Shown: positions 1,677-33,000 of the stretch, in pieces | Layout: the number at the start of each line of letters is the position of its first letter | How positions within the stretch are numbered: position 1 is the stretch's first letter | DNA from: a virus | IMG/VR virus record: IMGVR_UViG_3300006329_000001 | Coordinates: 32,001 to 96,000 of that record | Reading direction: 5' to 3' (one strand) | DNA length: 64,000 nt | Notes under the pieces: generated by a model | What the model saw: the letters and a program-made list of their open reading frames with translations, nothing else | The model's database searches: none | What the model was told of the DNA's origin: nothing | Program-made: the position numbers and the translations under genes

Positions 1677-3044
1677 TTACATTAGGTTTGTTACCTTAAC
1701 ACGTCTGTAATAACGGTTAGCGTTAGCAGTAAGAGCACCTTGACCTTGTGTAAGACCCTCAGCGAATGGGTTTGCAACCATTCCGTAACGAGTCTTAAAG
1801 CCAATTTTAGGTTGGAATGTATCCTGACCTACGGCTCTGACCATCTGTAGAGGCACATAAGGACAATAGAATAGTCCTGCGTCATATGCAGATGATCCCT
1901 TGTATCCAGAAACATAGAAGTGATTGTCACTTACGTTTGCTGAGTAAGGGTCAACGTATACCTTGATACGTCCGTTAAGGGTACCAACTAGAGTAGAAGA
2001 GTTGTCATCTACGTTTCCTAGAGGGTTAACTGCACTAGCTAATCCAGAAGAATAGTCAAGCACACCAGCCATAGAGAGAGCAGATGCCACATCAGCAGAG
2101 CAGATGAGGATGTTGCCCTTCCCACGACGAGTTTCATGCCCGATAGCATTCATGTCTCTTTCGATCTGGAAAAGAAGTCCCTTAAATTTTTCAACTGACC
2201 ATCTACCGTTTGAGTCAACATCTAAGTCGAATACTCCAGCAGTAGCTGTGTTGTTTTGTGCACCTGGGCGAGCGATCTTGTAAACAGTTCTAACAACTTC
2301 TCTGTTGATCTCAGCGAGAACTTCAGTAGAAAGAATGTTTGCAAGCTCAGACTCAGCGTCTAAACCGTGCACTGCTTTCAAGTCTTGAGCAAGCTCTAAA
2401 CTGTACTCTGCCTTTAGGGCTCTTGACTTAGCAGTAACAGTAACCTTCTCAATCGAGAATCCCATCTCGTTGAAGTGGTTAGTACTACCATCACCAAGTG
2501 CTTCAGACTGAGCAGTAGTCATACCTTGACCACCGATTGTGTACTGTCCAGCACCATCGGCAAGTAGACCTGGGTTAGATCCAGTCTGAGTATTAGATGC
2601 TAAACCATTAGCACTGTTCTCAGATGAATGCTCGGTATCAACTTCGTTGAAGAATGTTTCAACTGCACTGTTGTTGATATCTCTGTTTGTGCCTTTTGTG
2701 GATCTCATTGCAAAGATAAGTCCAGTAGGACCTGTCATTGGTTGAACTCCGCAAATGTCGTAAGCGATTAGCTTAGGCATACTACGACGAATTAATGAAA
2801 TTAGAACTGGGTCGAAACCTGCAACAGGACCTGTAGCGGTGCTACCACCTGAGTAACCAGTACCACCAAGTGAGTTGGTAGGTGCTGCTTCAGTAACGAG
2901 ACCACGCTCTTCTTTCAAAAACTTTTCTTGGTTTTCCAAGAGGACTGATGTAACCGCTTTTCTGTAGGTATCCTTAATAGGATCGAGCTCAGAGTGCTCA
3001 AGAATAGGGTTCCACTTCTCTTGGAGTGATTCTGCGTTAAACAT
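1677..3044 (-). CDS. gp23: Major capsid protein gp23
   Basis: GVQPMTGPTGLIFAMR, KSRALKAEYSLELAQDLKAVHGLDAE and FQPKIGFKTRYG motifs; likely processing site LVTE|AAP. Confidence 0.98.
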   Translation of the reverse strand: MFNAESLQEKWNPILEHSELDPIKDTYRKAVTSVLLENQEKFLKEERGLVTEAAPTNSLGGTGYSGGSTATGPVAGFDPVLISLIRRSMPKLIAYDICGVQPMTGPTGLIFAMRSTKGTNRDINNSAVETFFNEVDTEHSSENSANGLASNTQTGSNPGLLADGAGQYTIGGQGMTTAQSEALGDGSTNHFNEMGFSIEKVTVTAKSRALKAEYSLELAQDLKAVHGLDAESELANILSTEVLAEINREVVRTVYKIARPGAQNNTATAGVFDLDVDSNGRWSVEKFKGLLFQIERDMNAIGHETRRGKGNILICSADVASALSMAGVLDYSSGLASAVNPLGNVDDNSSTLVGTLNGRIKVYVDPYSANVSDNHFYVSGYKGSSAYDAGLFYCPYVPLQMVRAVGQDTFQPKIGFKTRYGMVANPFAEGLTQGQGALTANANRYYRRVKVTNLM

Positions 3045-4180: not shown

Positions 4181-4828
4181 TTACAAACCTTGTAAATACT
4201 GTGAAAATGCGGAAAGTTTTACCTCTTCCATCTGATTTAGTGCAGCATTATCGATTCTTTTCTTAATCTGCTCCACTTTTTGCTCTTGAACTGACCCATT
4301 ATTATAGATCCATTCCTTTCCTTCCATGATTCCATTGACGAAAGCATCGGGTGCGGAAGGGTCTGCCACTATATCAGCAGCAGTTGCGAGCATAAAGTCA
4401 TCCATGACAACTTTAACACCGTCTCTTTCTCTTATAGTACCAAGTCCACGTGATGAAACACCTAACTTGACACCCTCATCAATGAGGTTTTTAGCAATGT
4501 TACCCATTGGTGTATCCAATAGTCTTGCTTTACCCACATAGTTATTACCCTCTTGCTTAAGAGAAGTAATTAGATGTGACACTCTATCTAGGTTGATAGT
4601 AGGACCATCTGGATGACCTAACTCACCAAGAGCACGTCCTTTTTCGATGTACTTCTTGTTGTAGTTAACCGCCTCACGTTGAAGAGTCGAAATGGGATAC
4701 ATCCGACCATTGCGGTTTTTGATTTCGCCCTGCAAAAATACACCCTCGATAAAATGGTTTTTCTTACCATTCTTACCTTCGGTGATTGTTACCTTAGCGG
4801 TTTCAATTTCCTCCCTGATCAGTTTCAT
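4181..4828 (-). CDS. gp21: Prohead core protease gp21 (start moved to MKLIREE)
   Basis: NRNGRMY, ALGELGHP, GVSSRGLG and DIVADPSAPDAF motifs. Confidence 0.95.
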   Translation of the reverse strand: MKLIREEIETAKVTITEGKNGKKNHFIEGVFLQGEIKNRNGRMYPISTLQREAVNYNKKYIEKGRALGELGHPDGPTINLDRVSHLITSLKQEGNNYVGKARLLDTPMGNIAKNLIDEGVKLGVSSRGLGTIRERDGVKVVMDDFMLATAADIVADPSAPDAFVNGIMEGKEWIYNNGSVQEQKVEQIKKRIDNAALNQMEEVKLSAFSQYLQGL

Positions 4829-5069
4829 CTTTTGGTTCCTCGGTTTCGGTTTCAGTTTCAGCAGATGCTTCGGGTGCTGCATCCTCAGGTTGCTCGGTGT
4901 TTTCAGGACCGTCTTCCTGTGGTTTGAACATGGTTTTACCCAACTCTTTCTTCTGTGTCTCTATGGCATCTAATGCTTTATCATTCATACCTTGGACAAC
5001 ATAATCAGAAAGATCTTTCTTACCCGCAAACAATGCGTTTACGATATCTCTTGCTACATCTGTTGGCAT
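4803..5069 (-). CDS. Small acidic prohead core protein (gp67/gp68 position)
   Basis: Acidic protein between gp20 and gp21; TAAATA at 5091-5096 upstream. Confidence 0.6.
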   Translation of the reverse strand: MPTDVARDIVNALFAGKKDLSDYVVQGMNDKALDAIETQKKELGKTMFKPQEDGPENTEQPEDAAPEASAETETETEEPKDETDQGGN

Positions 5070-10315: not shown

Positions 10316-11974
10316 TTACGAGAGGTAGTCCCACATATATGCCTTATCTCCGTACTCATCTGTCTTCCAAGTGTCGCCTTCCGCATCCGTGAAGGTCTCC
10401 TCGTACTGAACTCCGTCATCGATAAAACCAAACGGAGCCATGTCCGCTTCTATACCATCTTTTTGCTCCTGATACATGCGGAGACGTACGTCATCGTCAT
10501 GTAATTCTCTGAAGTAATCTGTGGTTGCTAACCATGCAAAAATAACTAAGCACATTGCTAAGTCATCGTTACATCCTTCCTCAGCTTCCCATGCTGGACC
10601 TCTCTGAATGAATGTAGTTAGCTCTGCCATAATATCATAGTCCTTAAAGATGAGTTTGTCATCTTCAATCAACTGTTTTAGGTTAGAGCAACCAGTCTTC
10701 TTGACTGTTGTGCTCATCTTAACCCCTAGTTGTACCTTGGTACCACTAAATCCTTGTCCTACTACCTGACCTGCCCTACCTCTCATGGCACACATGAGTA
10801 AATTCTCGTATTCTAGGTCAAATTGTATAATATCTGCTACCTGTCCACCAATATCATTAACTTCTATCATTATATACGCCTGGTTATATGCAGTGGCGAC
10901 CCTATGAATGATATCTGGGAATAATAATGGTTTAATCTTATTGTTTCTATACTTTGCTACCACCATATAGGGTATTTCTGTGGTATCTACCACTGTAAAT
11001 GCAGAATAATCCTTAGTTAGACCCCTAGCAACGTCAACACAGATGTGATATGAGTGTCCTTGCACTGGATCTTCATAGACTGACAGTCCTGCTTCCTTCT
11101 TAATAGGTTCTTCGTATATTAATGTCTTTAATTTAGTACTACTGATGAGAGTATTAACAGATCCTAGGAATTCACACTCAAATTCTTGGTTGAATTGCTC
11201 CTCTGATGTGTTTCGTATCGTCTCTTCTTTCCACTTTGCATCTCTACCTGGTACCTGTTGCCAGTGTACCTCTGTTGTGGTGTATTCATTCTGTCCTTTC
11301 TCTGCATCATGCCACAGTTTATAGAACATATTCATACCCTTGGGGGTAGATATGATTATAACTTTAGTGCTCTTACCAGAAGATATAGTAGGATAGACAG
11401 AACTAAAGAACTCGTCAGCAATATGCGTCGGAATAAAGGCGAATTCGTCCAGAAATATAATGTTAAAGGACATACCCCGAACAGCACTTGCAGAAGTAGA
11501 AGCAGCCAAGATCTTACTTCCATTCTCCAACTCCAAGGAGCCCCTGTTCCAGTTGACCACACCTTGTTGAAGCCATTTAGGGAGATTTTCGTAAGAAAGT
11601 TGTAACCTTCCCAACATTTCTCTTGCAGTGGCTGCTTTGTTTGCGAGGATTGCGATGTTGACATTATCATTAAAGATTGCGTACCACAGTAGATATGCAG
11701 TAACCACTGTAGATTTACCTGACTGACGTGGTAGCTTTGCTATATTGAATCTATTCTCATGGAATCGATTCACCATGTCTTCTTGGAAATCGTACAGATC
11801 AAAACCAACTATACCTTGATCGAGGTTAACGATCTTAATATAGTTGCGAATAAAATAAACAGGATCCTGACTACACTTTATAAACTCCTTCACCTGTTTA
11901 GGTGTGAAGTTAGTGTTAACGTTAGCCCGTTTGAGATTGGGGTTACCTAGATATATCTCCTGCTTTTCTGGCAT
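10316..11974 (-). CDS. gp17: Terminase large subunit gp17
   Basis: YLGNPNLK, Walker A RQSGKST, Walker B IIFLDEFAF, motif III STPKG, nuclease DVARG and NDDLAM. Confidence 0.98.
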   Translation of the reverse strand: MPEKQEIYLGNPNLKRANVNTNFTPKQVKEFIKCSQDPVYFIRNYIKIVNLDQGIVGFDLYDFQEDMVNRFHENRFNIAKLPRQSGKSTVVTAYLLWYAIFNDNVNIAILANKAATAREMLGRLQLSYENLPKWLQQGVVNWNRGSLELENGSKILAASTSASAVRGMSFNIIFLDEFAFIPTHIADEFFSSVYPTISSGKSTKVIIISTPKGMNMFYKLWHDAEKGQNEYTTTEVHWQQVPGRDAKWKEETIRNTSEEQFNQEFECEFLGSVNTLISSTKLKTLIYEEPIKKEAGLSVYEDPVQGHSYHICVDVARGLTKDYSAFTVVDTTEIPYMVVAKYRNNKIKPLLFPDIIHRVATAYNQAYIMIEVNDIGGQVADIIQFDLEYENLLMCAMRGRAGQVVGQGFSGTKVQLGVKMSTTVKKTGCSNLKQLIEDDKLIFKDYDIMAELTTFIQRGPAWEAEEGCNDDLAMCLVIFAWLATTDYFRELHDDDVRLRMYQEQKDGIEADMAPFGFIDDGVQYEETFTDAEGDTWKTDEYGDKAYMWDYLS

Positions 11975-12204: not shown

Positions 12205-12388
12205 TGGCTTCTTTTATTGCCTCTACGATAGTTCTCTTCAGTTGATTCTGTTTCTTTCTACCGATACCAACAGATGCATCTATCTTTACTTTAACCCAGT
12301 AAAGACCTATTATTACTAGAGTAAATGGAATAGCATCAGCCCAACTGATCTCATTCCATGCCTCTACGACATTTAACATTCCAAACAT
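12194..12388 (-). CDS. Small membrane protein
   Basis: One hydrophobic helix (AIPFTLVIIGLYWV) and a basic tail; overlaps neighbours. Confidence 0.6.
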   Translation of the reverse strand: MFGMLNVVEAWNEISWADAIPFTLVIIGLYWVKVKIDASVGIGRKKQNQLKRTIVEAIKEANGT

Positions 12389-12930
12389 TAGTATAATCCA
12401 GGTAAGTTTGCAGCAGTAGTAGACTGTAATCCGTCTCCTACTTCGGGTAAGGGATCACCCTCGTCAGGTGCTTCGGGTAAGGTACCTTGTGCTCTACGAA
12501 TCTCTCTTAACTCTCCGAAGTTTTTATTCTTCGTACCTCCATCATACTCCCAAGCATATCCCTCAGCAATCATTTGTTCGTTGAGTGATGTATCATCATC
12601 GCCAACGTATAACCAACCAAGAAGCCTACCATACTTACCCATGCCACCTTTAAGTTCAGTTCTGATAGTAAGTTCATTGTCTCCTTTAATTGTATCTTCT
12701 AACGTTCCTTTCATCCAGTTAGTAGCATCTATTCCCAGTGCCTTCTCTTCTAAATCTCTAGTCCTCTTCTCAGGAGTATCGATACCAGCTATTCTAACAC
12801 GTTCGTGCTTATAGATATCAAATCCTAAGTCTATTACCACGTCAATGGTATCTCCATCAACTACTTTTGTTACTTCCGTCACTCGGAAGTTGTAACAACT
12901 CTTCCGAGATGGTGGTGTCATCTTTCCCAT
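12388..12930 (-). CDS. Thermonuclease (staphylococcal nuclease-like) family protein
   Basis: VVDGDTIDV, RVRIAGIDTPE, KYGRLLG and LNEQMIAEGYAWEY motifs. The start is probably MGKMTPP (12930). Confidence 0.88.
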   Translation of the reverse strand: MGKMTPPSRKSCYNFRVTEVTKVVDGDTIDVVIDLGFDIYKHERVRIAGIDTPEKRTRDLEEKALGIDATNWMKGTLEDTIKGDNELTIRTELKGGMGKYGRLLGWLYVGDDDTSLNEQMIAEGYAWEYDGGTKNKNFGELREIRRAQGTLPEAPDEGDPLPEVGDGLQSTTAANLPGLY

Positions 12931-13027
12931 TTGGATACCAATCATCATACTTAAATATGTATACGATTACCACCCCTACCGCAATGAGTAGTATTGCGAT
13001 CATCCAGATAACACCCCAGACTACCAT
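12857..13027 (-). CDS. Small membrane protein, not in track (MVVWGVIWMIAILLIAVGVVIVYIFKYDD...)
   Basis: Manual translation; TAATG coupling to the upstream ORF; N-terminal TM helix. The C-terminus overlaps the nuclease start. Confidence 0.5.
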   Translation of the reverse strand: MVVWGVIWMIAILLIAVGVVIVYIFKYDDWYPNGKDDTTISEELLQLPSDGSNKSS

Positions 13028-13757: not shown

Positions 13758-13883
13758 CTATTTATCTTTGTTACGAAATGCACAACGCAGTTCATGCTTC
13801 TCTATCCATGTGTATGGACGTGCATGACCTATTGGTGCTGTCAGTCCACAATACTTGCAGACTTTTCTTCTTTCTTCAACCAT
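13758..13883 (-). CDS. 41-aa putative zinc-finger peptide (CxxC...HxxxC)
   Basis: MVEERRKVCKYCG...KHELRC; the start overlaps the stop region of the 633-aa ORF. Confidence 0.5.
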   Translation of the reverse strand: MVEERRKVCKYCGLTAPIGHARPYTWIEKHELRCAFRNKDK

Positions 13884-15777
13884 AGTGATAACTCGGTTTG
13901 TTGGTCTTCTTAGATAGATTCTTACTTCTGACCTTTGTGCCAGATGTCTCACCATATCCTTTAGGATGCTTACCAGGTTTTGTCTTACCTAACTTCTCAG
14001 AAGGTTTTGGCTTCTTCGATTCAGTGTCATGTAATCTTGCTGGCTTATCCTTATCTTTAGTTATAACACTTTCTTGTCCATGTTTGCGACCCAATCGTCG
14101 CATAACTTTACCAAAGCGACGCTTACTCATTCCCTTACCTGGAGAGGTTTGGTATGATACTTCACGTCCTTTAGATCCATCATCATATTTGTATTCACCG
14201 ACACCCTTCTTATATCCGATGCCTTTCTTCTTGAGGTCTTTTTCGAGCCCCTTGCGGGACTCTTTATTCTTTTTTGCGTCTGTACCTCTGTCTGCACTAA
14301 TGTTACCAGTCTGTTGTGACTTAGACTTTTGCATCATACGAGTAGTAGGGTTACCTTCCTTAAGGAAATCACTGAATCTCTTCAGTCCATCCTTCTCATG
14401 ATACTCCCAGTGACCTTCTTTCACATGGTCAGCAGCTTTGTATAGAGGTTTGCCTGTCTTGGCATTCTTCTTACCTGACTTGTATCCTTGCCATGCAGGT
14501 GTGTTACCTTTCTTGTCAGCATTAGTAACAGTATACTCTTCCTTTGTTTCTGTCTTTCTCTTAGCAGCAGATGCTTTGTATAGTCTTACTGCTTGAGCAT
14601 TCTTCTTCTTAGCACCTTCCTTATCACCAGCATGTGCTAGTTTACCACGCTTCTTATCTGCTTCCTTTGAAGCTGCTAGTGCAGTATCAGCAGAGATCTC
14701 ATGTAATGTTTCTTCATTCTTGCTCTTAGCATTTGAATGATGTGATGAATCACCGAATGCAGGATTATTTTTATATTCTGGTTTTTGTTTTTTCTTTTCG
14801 TCTGATAATTTCTTTGCTTTCTTATCAAGATAATCCTTCATCGCACCTTTAGGTTTACCATCTCCTTTATAGAGACCATAAGATGTGCCTTCGTTGGTAT
14901 CCTCTTCTTTAGGACCAGCAGCTTTTCTAACTCCTTTTTGCACATGGTCAACAGCAGCATCTTTGGCACCTTCCTTAGCAGCATTGCCCAGTCTCTGCCC
15001 AAAACCAGCAGTCTTAGTACTACTACCAGCAGTGGTACCAGCAACGGATGCTTTCTTAGCAGCAGCACCTCCGACAGCTTTGGTTGCTCCAGCAGCAGCA
15101 CCAGCACCTTTGACAGCAGCAGCACCTTTCCCAGCAGCAGCAGCACCTTTCGCAGCGACAGCACCAACTTTGGCAGCCTTAGCACCAACTACCGCAGCTT
15201 TTGTTGCGAGAACCGCAGCAGTTACTGCTTCTTCATCTACTACTTGCTTAAAAGATTTAAGGACAAATGATTCCTTTTTAGTACTCATAATAGCTCCCTT
15301 GCCATGTTTCTTTTCAATGTTTTTCTTAACAATATCAAGTGCGGTAACACCTTTACCGTGCTCTTTTTCAGCTTGCTTTTGGTAAACAGTTTTACCTTTG
15401 GTTTTCTTTCCACTACTTCCAGAAGATGATCCACCACCTCCTTTCCATGTGCCTCTCTCTAATTGCTTATCCCTCCAGTGATCATAACCCTCTTCACCAA
15501 AGACTTCTTCATTGGTGTGTGCAAATGCTTTTCTCATTTTACCAATAGCATCTCCTCTAAGATGAGGTGGATACTTTGAGTCATCCTTCTTCTTCTTTTT
15601 CTTAACAGCATCACCCAGTTTACTATGTTCAATCTCTGGTTGATACCCTTTACCTTCTGCAGCTAGACTTCCTTCACCATGTTGTCTGGTGTTAAGTCTA
15701 TCTATAGCAGGATTCTTCTTCTTGACGAAGGATCTATGAGCTGCGGATTTGCCTTTAGGGTTTGACACGTTAGCCAC
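13876..15777 (-). CDS. Basic modular protein; probable capsid-internal polyprotein with a C-terminal SAM-lyase-like domain
   Basis: Lys-rich modules separated by Glu motifs, two capsid-targeting-like motifs, and a C-terminal ISADRG...GEY...E.S...QESVI pattern (see findings). Confidence 0.6.
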   Translation of the reverse strand: MANVSNPKGKSAAHRSFVKKKNPAIDRLNTRQHGEGSLAAEGKGYQPEIEHSKLGDAVKKKKKKDDSKYPPHLRGDAIGKMRKAFAHTNEEVFGEEGYDHWRDKQLERGTWKGGGGSSSGSSGKKTKGKTVYQKQAEKEHGKGVTALDIVKKNIEKKHGKGAIMSTKKESFVLKSFKQVVDEEAVTAAVLATKAAVVGAKAAKVGAVAAKGAAAAGKGAAAVKGAGAAAGATKAVGGAAAKKASVAGTTAGSSTKTAGFGQRLGNAAKEGAKDAAVDHVQKGVRKAAGPKEEDTNEGTSYGLYKGDGKPKGAMKDYLDKKAKKLSDEKKKQKPEYKNNPAFGDSSHHSNAKSKNEETLHEISADTALAASKEADKKRGKLAHAGDKEGAKKKNAQAVRLYKASAAKRKTETKEEYTVTNADKKGNTPAWQGYKSGKKNAKTGKPLYKAADHVKEGHWEYHEKDGLKRFSDFLKEGNPTTRMMQKSKSQQTGNISADRGTDAKKNKESRKGLEKDLKKKGIGYKKGVGEYKYDDGSKGREVSYQTSPGKGMSKRRFGKVMRRLGRKHGQESVITKDKDKPARLHDTESKKPKPSEKLGKTKPGKHPKGYGETSGTKVRSKNLSKKTNKPSYHYG

Positions 15778-16303
15778 CTACGACTTGGACTTGCTCTACT
15801 ACTACATCAGCACTACCAGCAGTCAGTTTAACTGCTCTATTAACTAGAGGAGTTTGACCTAGGATTAATTGTGCATCAGCATTAGCATAGTTTCCACCTG
15901 CACTAGATGAATCTATGTTGGTAGTTATGGTACCATCAGTTGTTGAAGCAACTGCTTTCCCACTACCTACAGCAGAAACAAATGCAGCAGCGTAATTTGT
16001 GTCACCACCATTCTGAGTAGAGATATAGTCTCCAGTCACAAACTTATGACCAGGAGTACCACCACTTTCTACAGTGATAACTTGAGGATTAGCACCAGTT
16101 GCAGAAGCAATTCGTGCATTTGCAGGTTTGCCACATGAGATTAACTCAGGGACACCAGCAGCGAGGGTAATTGCAGGTCCAGCATTGACTTGTATTGAAG
16201 ACGCTGAAGTTGCAAGGACACGCAATACACCAGATTTAACTGTGATGTAGGCAGTACCCGAACCACTTACTGTTTGCGTATCAATAACATTTAATACTGA
16301 CAT
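15770..16303 (-). CDS. Putative virion structural protein (beta-rich, Gly/Ala/Thr)
   Basis: Composition; late promoter ATAAATA at 16328-16334; follows gp16. Confidence 0.6.
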   Translation of the reverse strand: MSVLNVIDTQTVSGSGTAYITVKSGVLRVLATSASSIQVNAGPAITLAAGVPELISCGKPANARIASATGANPQVITVESGGTPGHKFVTGDYISTQNGGDTNYAAAFVSAVGSGKAVASTTDGTITTNIDSSSAGGNYANADAQLILGQTPLVNRAVKLTAGSADVVVEQVQVVGG

Positions 16304-16326: not shown

Positions 16327-16755
16327 TTATTTATCTTGCTTTTGTTTTAAAAACTTAGCAAGTTCTGCTGTGCTACCAACAAACATGGTGTTGTTGGTGA
16401 CTTGTTTATCAGATGAAGATCCTTTCGGATTCTCTATCTCATTAACTTTTTTATGAAGGTCTGCAAGTTTATCAGCAACGTCACCGACATGTTTGATAAG
16501 TTGTCCTGCTACTTCATATGCTCTTGGTTGGTCTGACTCTTGTGCTAACTCAAGTATACCATCAACTGCTTCTTGACCTTTTTCTATTAGAGAATATAAA
16601 TTACCTCTTGTATAGTCATAGTCTTTCCTCAGTTGTTTTTTAGTATCTTGTGCGACCTCAAGTGCCTTATCACTGCGTTTAACGCAACCACCTTCATTTT
16701 CAACAATGGAAGTGTCCACGTTCATTGCATTTTCAATAGCTTCAAAATCACTCAT
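16327..16755 (-). CDS. gp16: Terminase small subunit gp16
   Basis: DYDYTRGNLY, ESDQPRAYEV and FVGSTAEL motifs. Confidence 0.93.
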   Translation of the reverse strand: MSDFEAIENAMNVDTSIVENEGGCVKRSDKALEVAQDTKKQLRKDYDYTRGNLYSLIEKGQEAVDGILELAQESDQPRAYEVAGQLIKHVGDVADKLADLHKKVNEIENPKGSSSDKQVTNNTMFVGSTAELAKFLKQKQDK

Positions 16756-30000: not shown

Positions 30001-33000
30001 AATCTTGATCCAGATTGTGCACCAATTACAGTCTCACCAATAACAAATGGTGTCTCATTAGTTCTAGCATCTTCAGATGAGTTCTTAACGATCTCAATCA
30101 ACTTAGGTGTAATGTAAGTCATTATATTATCACCATCAAAGAATGCGTACATTCTGGTCTTAGGTTTGATACGTTGTACATCAAATCCAACGTTCCTAGA
30201 CCTGATCCATGGTATAAATGTACTATCAATAACACTGTCTCCTAGAGATCTTCTATCAATCCTAGGTACAACACGAGTTCTAATACCACTTCTTACCTGA
30301 CGACGTGTAGTGGTAATAGTCTGAGTCGCCATGATTCTTCTAGGCACACCACGAGAGAATGAATGTTCTCTCCATCTTCTTGTGTTAGTTCTTCTAGTAC
30401 CTGTCCAAGTAGTTCTCCATGCTCTCCATTGTATAGGAGCAAAACCTTGTTGGTTTACACGCAATCTTCTACGAGTTGCTTGGAAGTTACCTTCTATATT
30501 TGTAATTCTTGCAGGAGCACGACGTGTGTCAGTCCAGTCATCAGATGCAGGTGTAAGATCAATACGACCAATGAATGTGAAGACGTTAAATGGGTTAACG
30601 TTCTCCATTCTAGAAGCATATGGTTGTATGATTAACGCATCAGATGTGTATGGAAGAGTGATTAAGTTAGCAACTGCTTTCTGTACATTAGTAGAAGAAG
30701 TTGAGTTCCACTGTAATGCTACGTTAGTAGTATAATGCTGTGGACGTAGATTACCTTCTGTGAAGTCTAATGAACACTTATAGTCTAAGTTCTCTGTAGC
30801 AGAAGTTCCATGAGATGTAAAGTCATCAACCATGAATCCATTCTTAAGACGATCAAATCCATCATCATCATATGCTTTAACATTTCTAGCATCACTCTCA
30901 AGAAGAGATAGAGAAGTATAGTACTCAACGTCTTGTAAACGTCTGTCCATGTTACCTATGTCTTCCATAGTGTAACGACGTTGTTGGTGTAGAGTAATAA
31001 TTACATCTTCATCTACATCATAAACATATGGTTGGTAGCTAATCTTGGCAAGTAACATTGCATTGTCAAGATCATCTGCTTCAGGAGGATCTTCTGAAGG
31101 TATACCTTCAGATAATTTTAGATCACCATCATGTGTCATGAATAGTTTATCACGACGTGGTAGATAGTATTCGTAGTCAGCACGGAATTCTTCTTCTACC
31201 TTAGGTACGTTAAAGATAGTAGAACCACCTGCACCACCAGTGCTTGTGAATACTCTTGAGTCAAAGTCTAAACTTACACAGTTTGTGTAGTATGGTTGCT
31301 CAACTGTACCAGATCCAGATGCTAGTTCTCCAACAGCAGGTCTGAAGTCTACAGTATCAGTTAAGTACTTACTATTGTTATTACCTCTCCATCTAGGAAT
31401 TTCAGAGAAGTCAATACCAGAGTAAGATTGGTTAGCAAAGTAGTCACCTGACGCTTCATGAATGAAGTAGTCAAATACAACTGCTAATTTTCTACGAGGT
31501 TCAGCAGTTCCACCTTTTCTAAGAAGTTTGGAAACACTATAGTAGTAGGAATTTAAGCTAGCGTCTAAGTCGAAGTTCGCTGTGATGTTTTTTGATCCTC
31601 TTTCGAGTGATCCATCAGCATCATCAACGACACCAACCAAAGCATTAAGATCGTCATCAAAGCCATCGATGGTCTCTCCTGAATTAAAGAATTCTGAACT
31701 TGTAGGTACAAGATATAATCTAAGATTGTTAGAGTTAAATGATACAACTCTTGCACGAGCACCACTTGTTCTACCAACAACAATAGATCCTGGATCGAAG
31801 AATACATTCTCCGTTAGAATCACATAAGGTACTTGAGCATCACCATCATCTTCTGATTCATATACAGCATGTAGTTTGTATACATCATTCAGTGCGAATG
31901 AAATCTCTTCATCCTCAATACGAGTACCATATAAGTTACCGTATGTTAAACCGTAGTTCTGTACATCAGTATTGTTTCTAGTACGAACAACTTTCATCAC
32001 TCGCATCTTAGCAGCAGTCTTAATCTTCTTAGATACTGTATTGACAGAAACTGCAGCAGTTAGAGTTACCTCAGTAATATTAGAAGCACCACCACTACCT
32101 TGGTTCATACCAGTGACCTGTAGTGACTGTCTATTAGCACCAAAGGTTACACCGATAGTAGGTGAGTTCTTAGTAGATTCATTCTCAATATCAATGTTAG
32201 TACCTACATTCCAACCATATCCTGTATGACTGTTAGCACCTTGTGTAACTGTAAGAATATAGTTCTCACTATCAAGAGTAGTAAACTGTTCGTTCTCTGG
32301 TAGTGTGAATGTAACGTCACCAGATGATAACTGTTTGTTAGCGAAGGTTTTTATTACAACAAATGATTCATCAGAGATTGACTTAATGGCATGTTTAGGC
32401 ATGTCAATAACCAATTCTCCATCCTGTACAGTCTTCGTTGCAAATCTAGGACGTAATCTAACAACCTGTGCTGAAGGATATTCAGCATCAGGAACAGTAC
32501 CTTTAGTTAAACCTGTGTCTAATGCAGCATGTTGGTTAGTGAAATCAAATACAACAGCAGTACCAGGATCATTCCTGTTTGCAGTAGTAAATCCAATAGC
32601 AGTTTGATCTATTCTCTTAACTCGAATAGAGTTCTGTGCTTTAAAATCTGTATTAGTTGCAGTTATAACTTCACCTGCACGAATATCACTTTCGAATCTT
32701 GTACCGAAACCTTCTATTCTATCGTTACCACCTGTTGCATCAATATTAATAGTTGTACCTGGAATAGCCTCTCTAAGGTTAAGTGCTAATGAAGCAGTAA
32801 AGATAACAGTAGCACCATCTTTACCTACAACTTGACGAACATCAGATTGCTCATAAGCATATACAGCATCCAATGTATCTAATACTCTACCATCTCTAGT
32901 GATAACTTCACCGATTTGGAAATCTCCTGAAACTTGATGTACTAAACAAGAAGCACCTGAACCACTGTAAACAAATGCAGTAGCACCTGACTGACGACCT

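Follow-up and report, generated by a model that had tools for sequence, protein, structure and literature searches.

Two kinds of phage protein, the S-adenosyl-L-methionine (SAM) lyase of T3 and the capsid-targeted internal proteins (IPs) of T4, appear to be joined in a 633-amino acid (aa) open reading frame (ORF) on the minus strand of a 64,000-nt stretch of viral DNA (positions 32,001 to 96,000 of IMG/VR record IMGVR_UViG_3300006329_000001; hereafter, the window), which is a section of the 162.7-kb genome of a T4-like cyanomyovirus. In T3, the SAM lyase gp0.3 (PDB 7OCK, 8BB1) is made from its own gene as the first early protein, whereas the module in the window, about 15% identical to it, is the last one of a long protein encoded in the late structural region, stands behind a head-targeting leader and is far more basic (isoelectric point, pI, 10.3 vs 8.2). 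The core of Svi3-3, a SAM lyase of an environmental phage (PDB 6ZM9, 6ZNB), is a PII-like ferredoxin fold common to the module, which also has its ligand-binding Gly, Tyr, Glu and Gln-Glu-Ser. T4 IPI, IPII and IPIII resemble the window protein in a ten-residue leader ending in [L/I]-x-E, in the gp21 protease and in a basic cargo, and IPI* has an anti-restriction role like the one proposed here. However, the T4 leader is N-terminal on a small protein, whereas that of the window is internal to a multi-module protein and its enzyme cargo belongs to another family. We consider it reasonably probable that the 633-aa ORF encodes an internal head protein whose C-terminal SAM lyase of T3 type is probably injected with the DNA against host restriction; that the fused form found here is cleaved, packaged and active against restriction is plausible.

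The closest described protein is gp6 of S-CREM2, like the window phage a T4-like cyanophage with a leader-bearing SAM lyase module. According to the S-CREM2 report, this 414-aa 'SAM hydrolase' was found in purified virions with 19 peptides, and its authors proposed that it enters with the DNA at infection and shields that DNA from restriction (PMC10665884). It is named 'S-adenosyl-L-methionine hydrolase', and its GenBank record bears the note 'virion protein'. The protein is 33% identical to the module across all 169 residues, leader included (E 4e-14), and begins MKDFDSFLEE...L-E-E↓SSLSR (the arrow marks the predicted cut here and below). The S-CREM2 lyase is N-terminal, its leader opens the protein and the gene lies among early-type genes; in the window phage a C-terminal lyase follows an internal leader, and the locus is the stretch from gp16 to gp17. 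Term searches of the S-CREM2 report did not find 'internal protein'; none was aimed at a leader or a protease site (PMC10665884). A preliminary description of the window, made from the letters alone by a model that ran no database searches, had proposed a virion-injected, SAM-degrading anti-restriction enzyme; that idea is already in print for S-CREM2, a T4-like cyanophage (PMC10665884), and is less new than was assumed. What is new is the fused variant, which joins the two known kinds, the SAM-destroying anti-restriction enzyme of T3 and the head-targeting leader of T4, and which would be a different answer to the timing of restriction, the enzyme being brought in and not made on arrival. The parts of the ORF that carry the argument are the following.

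13876..15777, minus strand: 633-aa ORF with GTG start; last module a predicted SAM lyase
14356..14385, minus strand: LKRFSDFLKE (residues 465-474), a decamer resembling a capsid-targeting signal, with a gp21 cut predicted behind E474 (L-K-E↓G)
13879..14355, minus strand: predicted mature SAM lyase, residues 475-633 (159 aa, 17.7 kDa)
13879..14331, minus strand: core superposing on the T3 SAM lyase, ORF residues 483-633 (model residues 19-169)
14191..14199, minus strand: G-x-Y motif, G527-E528-Y529, corresponding to Svi3-3 G56 and Y58
14161..14163, minus strand: invariant Glu, E539, aligned with T3 E67/E68 and Svi3-3 E69
14068..14076, minus strand: Q-E-S motif, Q568-E569-S570, corresponding to Svi3-3 Q104-E105-S106 and to Q-D-C in T3
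15229..15261, minus strand: second, weaker leader-like segment LKSFKQVVDEE, residues 173-183 (compare the start of P0061, MKSFKQFIAE)

Residues 465-633 (169 aa) matched the family PF23780 (S-AdoMet_lyase) with 30.4 bits (E 4.1e-7), passing the gathering cut-off of 28. Searches recovered 178 homologues of 64-207 aa, most of them with a precomputed PF23780 match, and a Pfam scan found the family in 26 of 29 aligned homologues (best, 6.9e-10). The family profile, run against 1.8 billion representative proteins, brought in 322 relatives, and all ten distant relatives scanned gave strong PF23780 matches (51-84 bits). When a profile of 71 homologues was aligned by hhalign with T3 gp0.3, the match (E 1.4e-5) paired ISAxRG of the module with VSAFRS of T3, an Asn, G-x-Y with G-C-Y, the Glu with E67-E68 and Q-E-S-V with Q-D-C-V. 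An AlphaFold monomer model of the module, built on the homologue alignment, had a mean predicted local distance difference test (pLDDT) score of 82.3 and a predicted template modelling (pTM) score of 0.77; its best Foldseek matches in the PDB were the T3 SAM lyase (8bb1, 7ock) and Svi3-3 (6zm9, 6znb), and it reproduces the PII-like ferredoxin fold of the solved SAM lyases. NCBIfam holds no model that matches the module, its homologues or even the T3 SAMase. Five independent lines agree, on sequence and model, in supporting the assignment of the C-terminal module to the SAM lyases of T3 type, with activity predicted. The assignment offers a concrete function for T4-GC 110, the gene cluster of the lyase homologues, which is so far annotated as hypothetical in the isolate records of P-SSM2, P-SSM4, P-TIM40 and S-SZBM1 and in other tblastn matches.

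In active SAM lyases the only strictly conserved residues, all of them SAM-binding, are those equivalent to Gly56, Glu69 and Gln104 of Svi3-3, in which Tyr58 lies against the sulfonium and the carboxylate is held by Glu105 and Ser106 (Guo et al., PMC7877911). Across the 71 diverse homologues, with a mean column identity of 20%, the sole invariant columns were G63, E75 and Q104 in module numbering (ORF residues G527, E539 and Q568). This coincidence is strong support for a functional SAM-binding site, which we predict for the module. Close relatives also share Y529, E569 and V571 without exception, with either Ser or Thr at 570, so the G-x-Y, Glu and Q-E-S/T matches to which the preliminary description had pointed, and with them its identification of a SAM lyase, are upheld by family, homologues and invariant residues, as is the resemblance to the T3 and Svi3-3 structures for which it had suggested a fold comparison. 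The T3 gp0.3 strings that it quoted agree with the T3 record, and its Svi3-3 strings are consistent with the published residue numbers (G56, Y58, E69, Q104, E105, S106; PMC7877911).

The same residues bear on whether the module may have kept the SAM-lyase fold and lost catalysis, serving as a structural internal head protein that condenses DNA. The predicted mature lyase has a pI of 10.3 and 28% Lys+Arg (8.2 and 12.5% in the T3 SAMase; pI 9.3-9.5, below its own value, in T4 IPII and IPIII), it sits in a low-complexity context and its Pfam score is barely over the cut-off, all of which would suit such a role. Yet, at that low mean identity, the invariant positions are precisely those of the ligand-binding Gly, Glu and Gln; a protein that served packing alone would not have preserved such a pattern, and we consider this explanation very improbable. 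A packaged protein that acts on another S-adenosyl substrate, such as the CRISPR type III signal SAM-AMP, or that works chiefly by binding and inactivating the host SAM synthetase, something the T3 SAMase does too, is in our judgement distinctly improbable. The catalytic Glu and Gln are common to SAM lyases and to the SAM-AMP lyase associated with CorA in type III CRISPR (PDB 9GAB, 9GAD), and the T3 SAMase forms heteropolymers with MetK (PMC8406200), 7ock and 8bb1 being such complexes; as to SAM-AMP, however, the fold of the module is far nearer to the T3 SAM lyase.

The preliminary description had quoted the module as the minus-strand translation of 14030-14385, and its residues are exact from LKRFSDFLKE↓GNPTT to ...KPARL, 14030 being the end of the last Leu codon. 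It had the domain end there; since the T3 fold match covers model residues 19-169, the domain extends to 13879, the last residue of the ORF.

Other members of the SAM lyase family occur in much larger proteins. By Pfam, the giant proteins P0203 (1591 aa) and P0239 (1496 aa) have two SAM-lyase-family stretches each, together with a head domain of poly(A) polymerase/CCA-type nucleotidyltransferase that is truncated in P0239, and P0203 additionally has a GNAT acetyltransferase domain.

The decamer ahead of the module resembles the sequence MKTYQEFIAE with which T4 IPII and IPIII both start, as the preliminary description had correctly stated. The first ten residues of IPIII are enough for targeting to the T4 head; positions 4 and 7 act in targeting and 8 and 10 in processing, and gp21 cleaves after the Glu of L/I-x-E (PMC9026906). 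At these mapped positions LKRFSDFLKE presents F, F, L and E, and a Gly comes next. In stand-alone homologues of the lyase the leader is at the true N-terminus: these proteins open with MKT[FY]QEF... and continue to [LIVM]-x-E, as in MKTYQEFM...L-D-E↓GG, MKSFKQFIAE↓GN and MKTFQEFM...V-V-E↓GN, and an isolate gene of this kind, P-SSM2 114, begins MRTFQEFLQLCE↓GG. The decamer and its Glu are retained in the fused homologues as well as in the free ones. The 633-aa ORF contains two [L/I]-x-E sites, a number not above the expectation from composition, so that the argument is drawn from conservation instead. Leader-like decamers of this phage are confined to the interior of the 633-aa ORF, no other ORF starting with the leader pattern in the window or in the 162.7-kb genome. 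Internal initiation at an in-frame GTG (residue 452) was considered as well and set aside: a 182-aa database entry starts there, but nothing supports its use.

The window also encodes the protease that such a leader would require, and a capsid protein with a corresponding site.

4181..4882, minus strand: gp21-type prohead protease (phrog_207, E 7.9e-83; 38% identity to T4 gp21, E 1e-28)
2889..2897, minus strand: V-T-E↓A of the major capsid protein, aligned with the maturation site L-T-E↓A of T4 gp23

T4 gp23 is cleaved after Glu65; the propeptide of the cyanophage protein is shorter, with a predicted cut after residue 52 vs 65. We infer that the gp21 of the window has the specificity for Glu of its T4 counterpart. 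The proposal that the decamer is a T4-type leader thus gains from its N-terminal place in stand-alone homologues, from its occurrence at the head of 25 further clusters of proteins (see below) and from the presence of gp21 and the gp23 site.

These clusters came from a scan of IMG/VR for DNA encoding MKT[FY]QEF[IM], which recovered 125 ORFs. The 115 ORFs of at least 60 aa were clustered after removal of their first 12 residues and fell into 26 clusters, one of which (33 ORFs) was the lyase; the other 25 were unrelated to the lyase and to each other, and included known small internal proteins of T-even phages. In 122 of the 125 leader ORFs an [LIVM]-x-E was found within residues 6-24, and, where the flanks permit a call, the genes are in T4-like structural regions, those of several clusters between gp16 and gp17. 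A leader found at the start of at least 25 otherwise unrelated families indicates a portable signal of the T4 kind. No paper tying the T4 leader to cyanophage proteins was found in the literature searched, and the leader may be a practical handle on injected effectors among the unannotated families of marine viruses.

The build of the 633-aa protein, which is very basic as a whole (pI 10.0) and consists of several short modules, is not peculiar to the window. The same fused arrangement is found in P-TIM40_113 (769 aa), S-SZBM1_194 (707 aa), P0128 and, among metagenomic proteins, many of 400-760 aa. Upstream of the lyase and its leader, 464 residues consist of short modules, which other phages have in rearranged order, usually with Glu-ending linkers between them: PEIEHSKLGD...KAFAHTNEEV, GYDxxRDxxLERGTWKGGG, a Gly/Ala/Lys zipper and YGLYKGDGKPKG (P0176, P0189, P0134, P0138). 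In one relative the lyase comes first and behind it stand a module with YGLYKGDGKPKG and a Gly/Ala-rich zipper, and in another the PEIEHSKLGD...KAFAHTNEEV module is immediately ahead of the lyase. At least one of the upstream modules also occurs as a small stand-alone protein with a leader, whose N-terminal junction, I-A-E↓GMTMKDFK, is equivalent to L-E-E↓GMSLKDFK within a long protein. Such matching junctions fit a polyprotein that gp21 would cut at its Glu-ending linkers. We tentatively suggest, at a little less than evenly balanced confidence, that the T4 leader is conserved in marine T4-like phages, where it would mark a large and mostly unannotated pool of injected proteins, and that the 633-aa ORF is a protease-segmented multi-effector polyprotein with the SAM lyase as its sole recognisable member. 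If this is true, a search for the leader is a direct route to new counter-defence and host-takeover proteins of ocean viruses.

The closest sequenced relatives of the window phage by tblastn are P-TIM40, P-SSM7, P-RSM1, S-SSM5 and further Kyanoviridae, and the gp17 of the window, used as query, is about 70% identical to T4-like contigs. On the minus strand the genes follow in the order gp13, gp14, gp15, gp16, a 177-aa gene, the 633-aa ORF and several small genes, past which come a staphylococcal nuclease (SNase)-like nuclease, a NifU-like gene, gp17, gp18, gp19, gp20, gp21, gp22 and gp23. The ORF belongs to an accessory island between gp16 and gp17, the same slot that its counterparts occupy in P-SSM4, P-TIM40 and S-SZBM1.

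16327..16755, minus strand: gp16, small terminase, upstream edge of the island
15770..16303, minus strand: 177-aa gene upstream of the ORF (phrog_682; T4-GC 403 in P-SSM4)
10316..11974, minus strand: 552-aa ORF, gp17, large terminase, downstream edge of the island

We take 10316..11974 to be gp17 from our own reading of its sequence and from its place, syntenic with gp17 as annotated in P-SSM4 and P-TIM40. The GTG of the 633-aa ORF lies inside GGTGGCTAA (15770-15777) and overlaps the stop of the 177-aa gene, which suggests translational coupling of the two; a near-identical metagenomic homologue begins with Met at this same point. Late expression of the ORF is suggested solely by its position among these genes.

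Two observations bear on the 177-aa gene. In P-SSM4 it (T4-GC 403) is noted as 'similar to S-SM1 protein', like the known virion proteins of that phage, and S-SZBM1 gene 195 (87 aa), which lies at the equivalent position, ranks third in virion abundance by the exponentially modified protein abundance index (emPAI). Within the island, the staphylococcal-nuclease-like endonuclease (phrog_452, 12388-12948) is without a leader.

Several results weigh against a packaged lyase in the window phage. The leader is internal, beginning at residue 465, its first codon is CTG and not a start, the open frame runs 464 codons further upstream, and the true N-terminus of the 633-aa ORF is without a leader. In the T4 experiments the leader was at the N-terminus (PMC9026906). 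Targeting by an internal leader is hypothetical. The exact T4-type late promoter TATAAATA occurs four times in the window, which is not above chance, and none of these is just upstream of the ORF; the sole promoter-like site nearby is GATAAATA, with one mismatch, ahead of the 177-aa gene. As to the enzyme, no Pfam match was obtained with the full 633-aa protein as query, the 118-aa piece of the preliminary description stayed under the PF23780 cut-off of 28 (23.1 bits, E 7.6e-5), and direct searches of PDB chains with the module or the family profile returned no SAM lyase, giving only chance matches to G-alpha and a GTPase, so that the link to the lyases required Pfam, hhalign and structure. 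Many marine picocyanobacteria are without recognised defence systems, although some marine Synechococcus strains carry type I restriction-modification. Finally, the virion proteome of S-SZBM1, with 30 proteins, does not include its fused homologue S-SZBM1_194. The lyase module yields just seven tryptic peptides of at least 7 residues and would be hard to detect and easily missed in virions; S-SM1, S-PM2 and Syn9, whose virion proteomes are published, are not among the phages with tblastn matches.

The internal position of the leader with loss of its start codon, the lack of a leader at the N-terminus of the ORF and the S-SZBM1 proteome would all be explained if the protein were an active SAM lyase that is made late but not packaged, and that acts in the producing cell by blocking methylation of progeny DNA or by shutting SAM-consuming host metabolism, the decamer being a relic of gene fusion. 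We regard this as unlikely. A relic would hardly account for the conservation of the decamer and its Glu in both fused and free homologues, nor for the linkers before other modules, which end in Glu too, like the leader-bearing stand-alone forms; moreover, the extreme basicity suits a DNA-associated head protein, and the presence of S-CREM2 gp6 in virions supports packaging of the family.

The reading of an injected lyase would imply the following course. The ORF would be transcribed late with the neck and terminase genes, as suggested by where it lies and by its coupling with the 177-aa gene, and the product would enter the prohead core through its T4-type capsid-targeting leader elements. 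There, gp21 would cut after the Glu of [L/I/V]-x-E sites, including L-K-E↓G at residue 474, to release the 159-aa, very basic lyase starting with GNPTT, which would stay with the packed DNA and be ejected along with it. In the new cell, a lyase homotrimer, its active sites between the subunits as is typical of the family, would turn SAM into methylthioadenosine and homoserine lactone, and SAM-dependent defences, such as type I restriction or bacteriophage exclusion (BREX), would presumably be starved ahead of any phage gene expression. T3 can make its SAMase as the first gene product. The genome of a T4-like phage probably enters complete and within a short time, and would be exposed to restriction ahead of any enzyme made in the cell, a timing problem that co-injection would solve. 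A picocyanobacterial cell assumed to be of about 0.2 fL, with about 0.2 mM SAM, would hold roughly 20,000 SAM molecules. Svi3-3 turns over about 10 per second, and fusions to the T4 leader are packed at 20-200 copies per head (PMC9026906); with these figures, as an order of magnitude, the SAM pool could drop within tens of seconds.

Among the leader families other than the lyase, a Pfam match was obtained in one of the nine clusters scanned (DUF5661; leader loci L007-L126, e.g. L009, L025, L096, L101 and L114). A family of about 150-180 aa with the pattern H-G-T-S ... S-T-N, whose members include L060:5389-5838, L076, L049, L064 and L081, was suspected to be an ADP-ribosyltransferase, of which T4 Alt is a packaged example; the candidate was set aside, as it had no Pfam match and its AlphaFold model (pLDDT 48) was left unused. 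Another leader family, of 356-438 aa and with the start MKTFQEFILEASCN..., occupies in T4-like marine contigs the gp16-gp17 slot in which the 633-aa ORF also lies.

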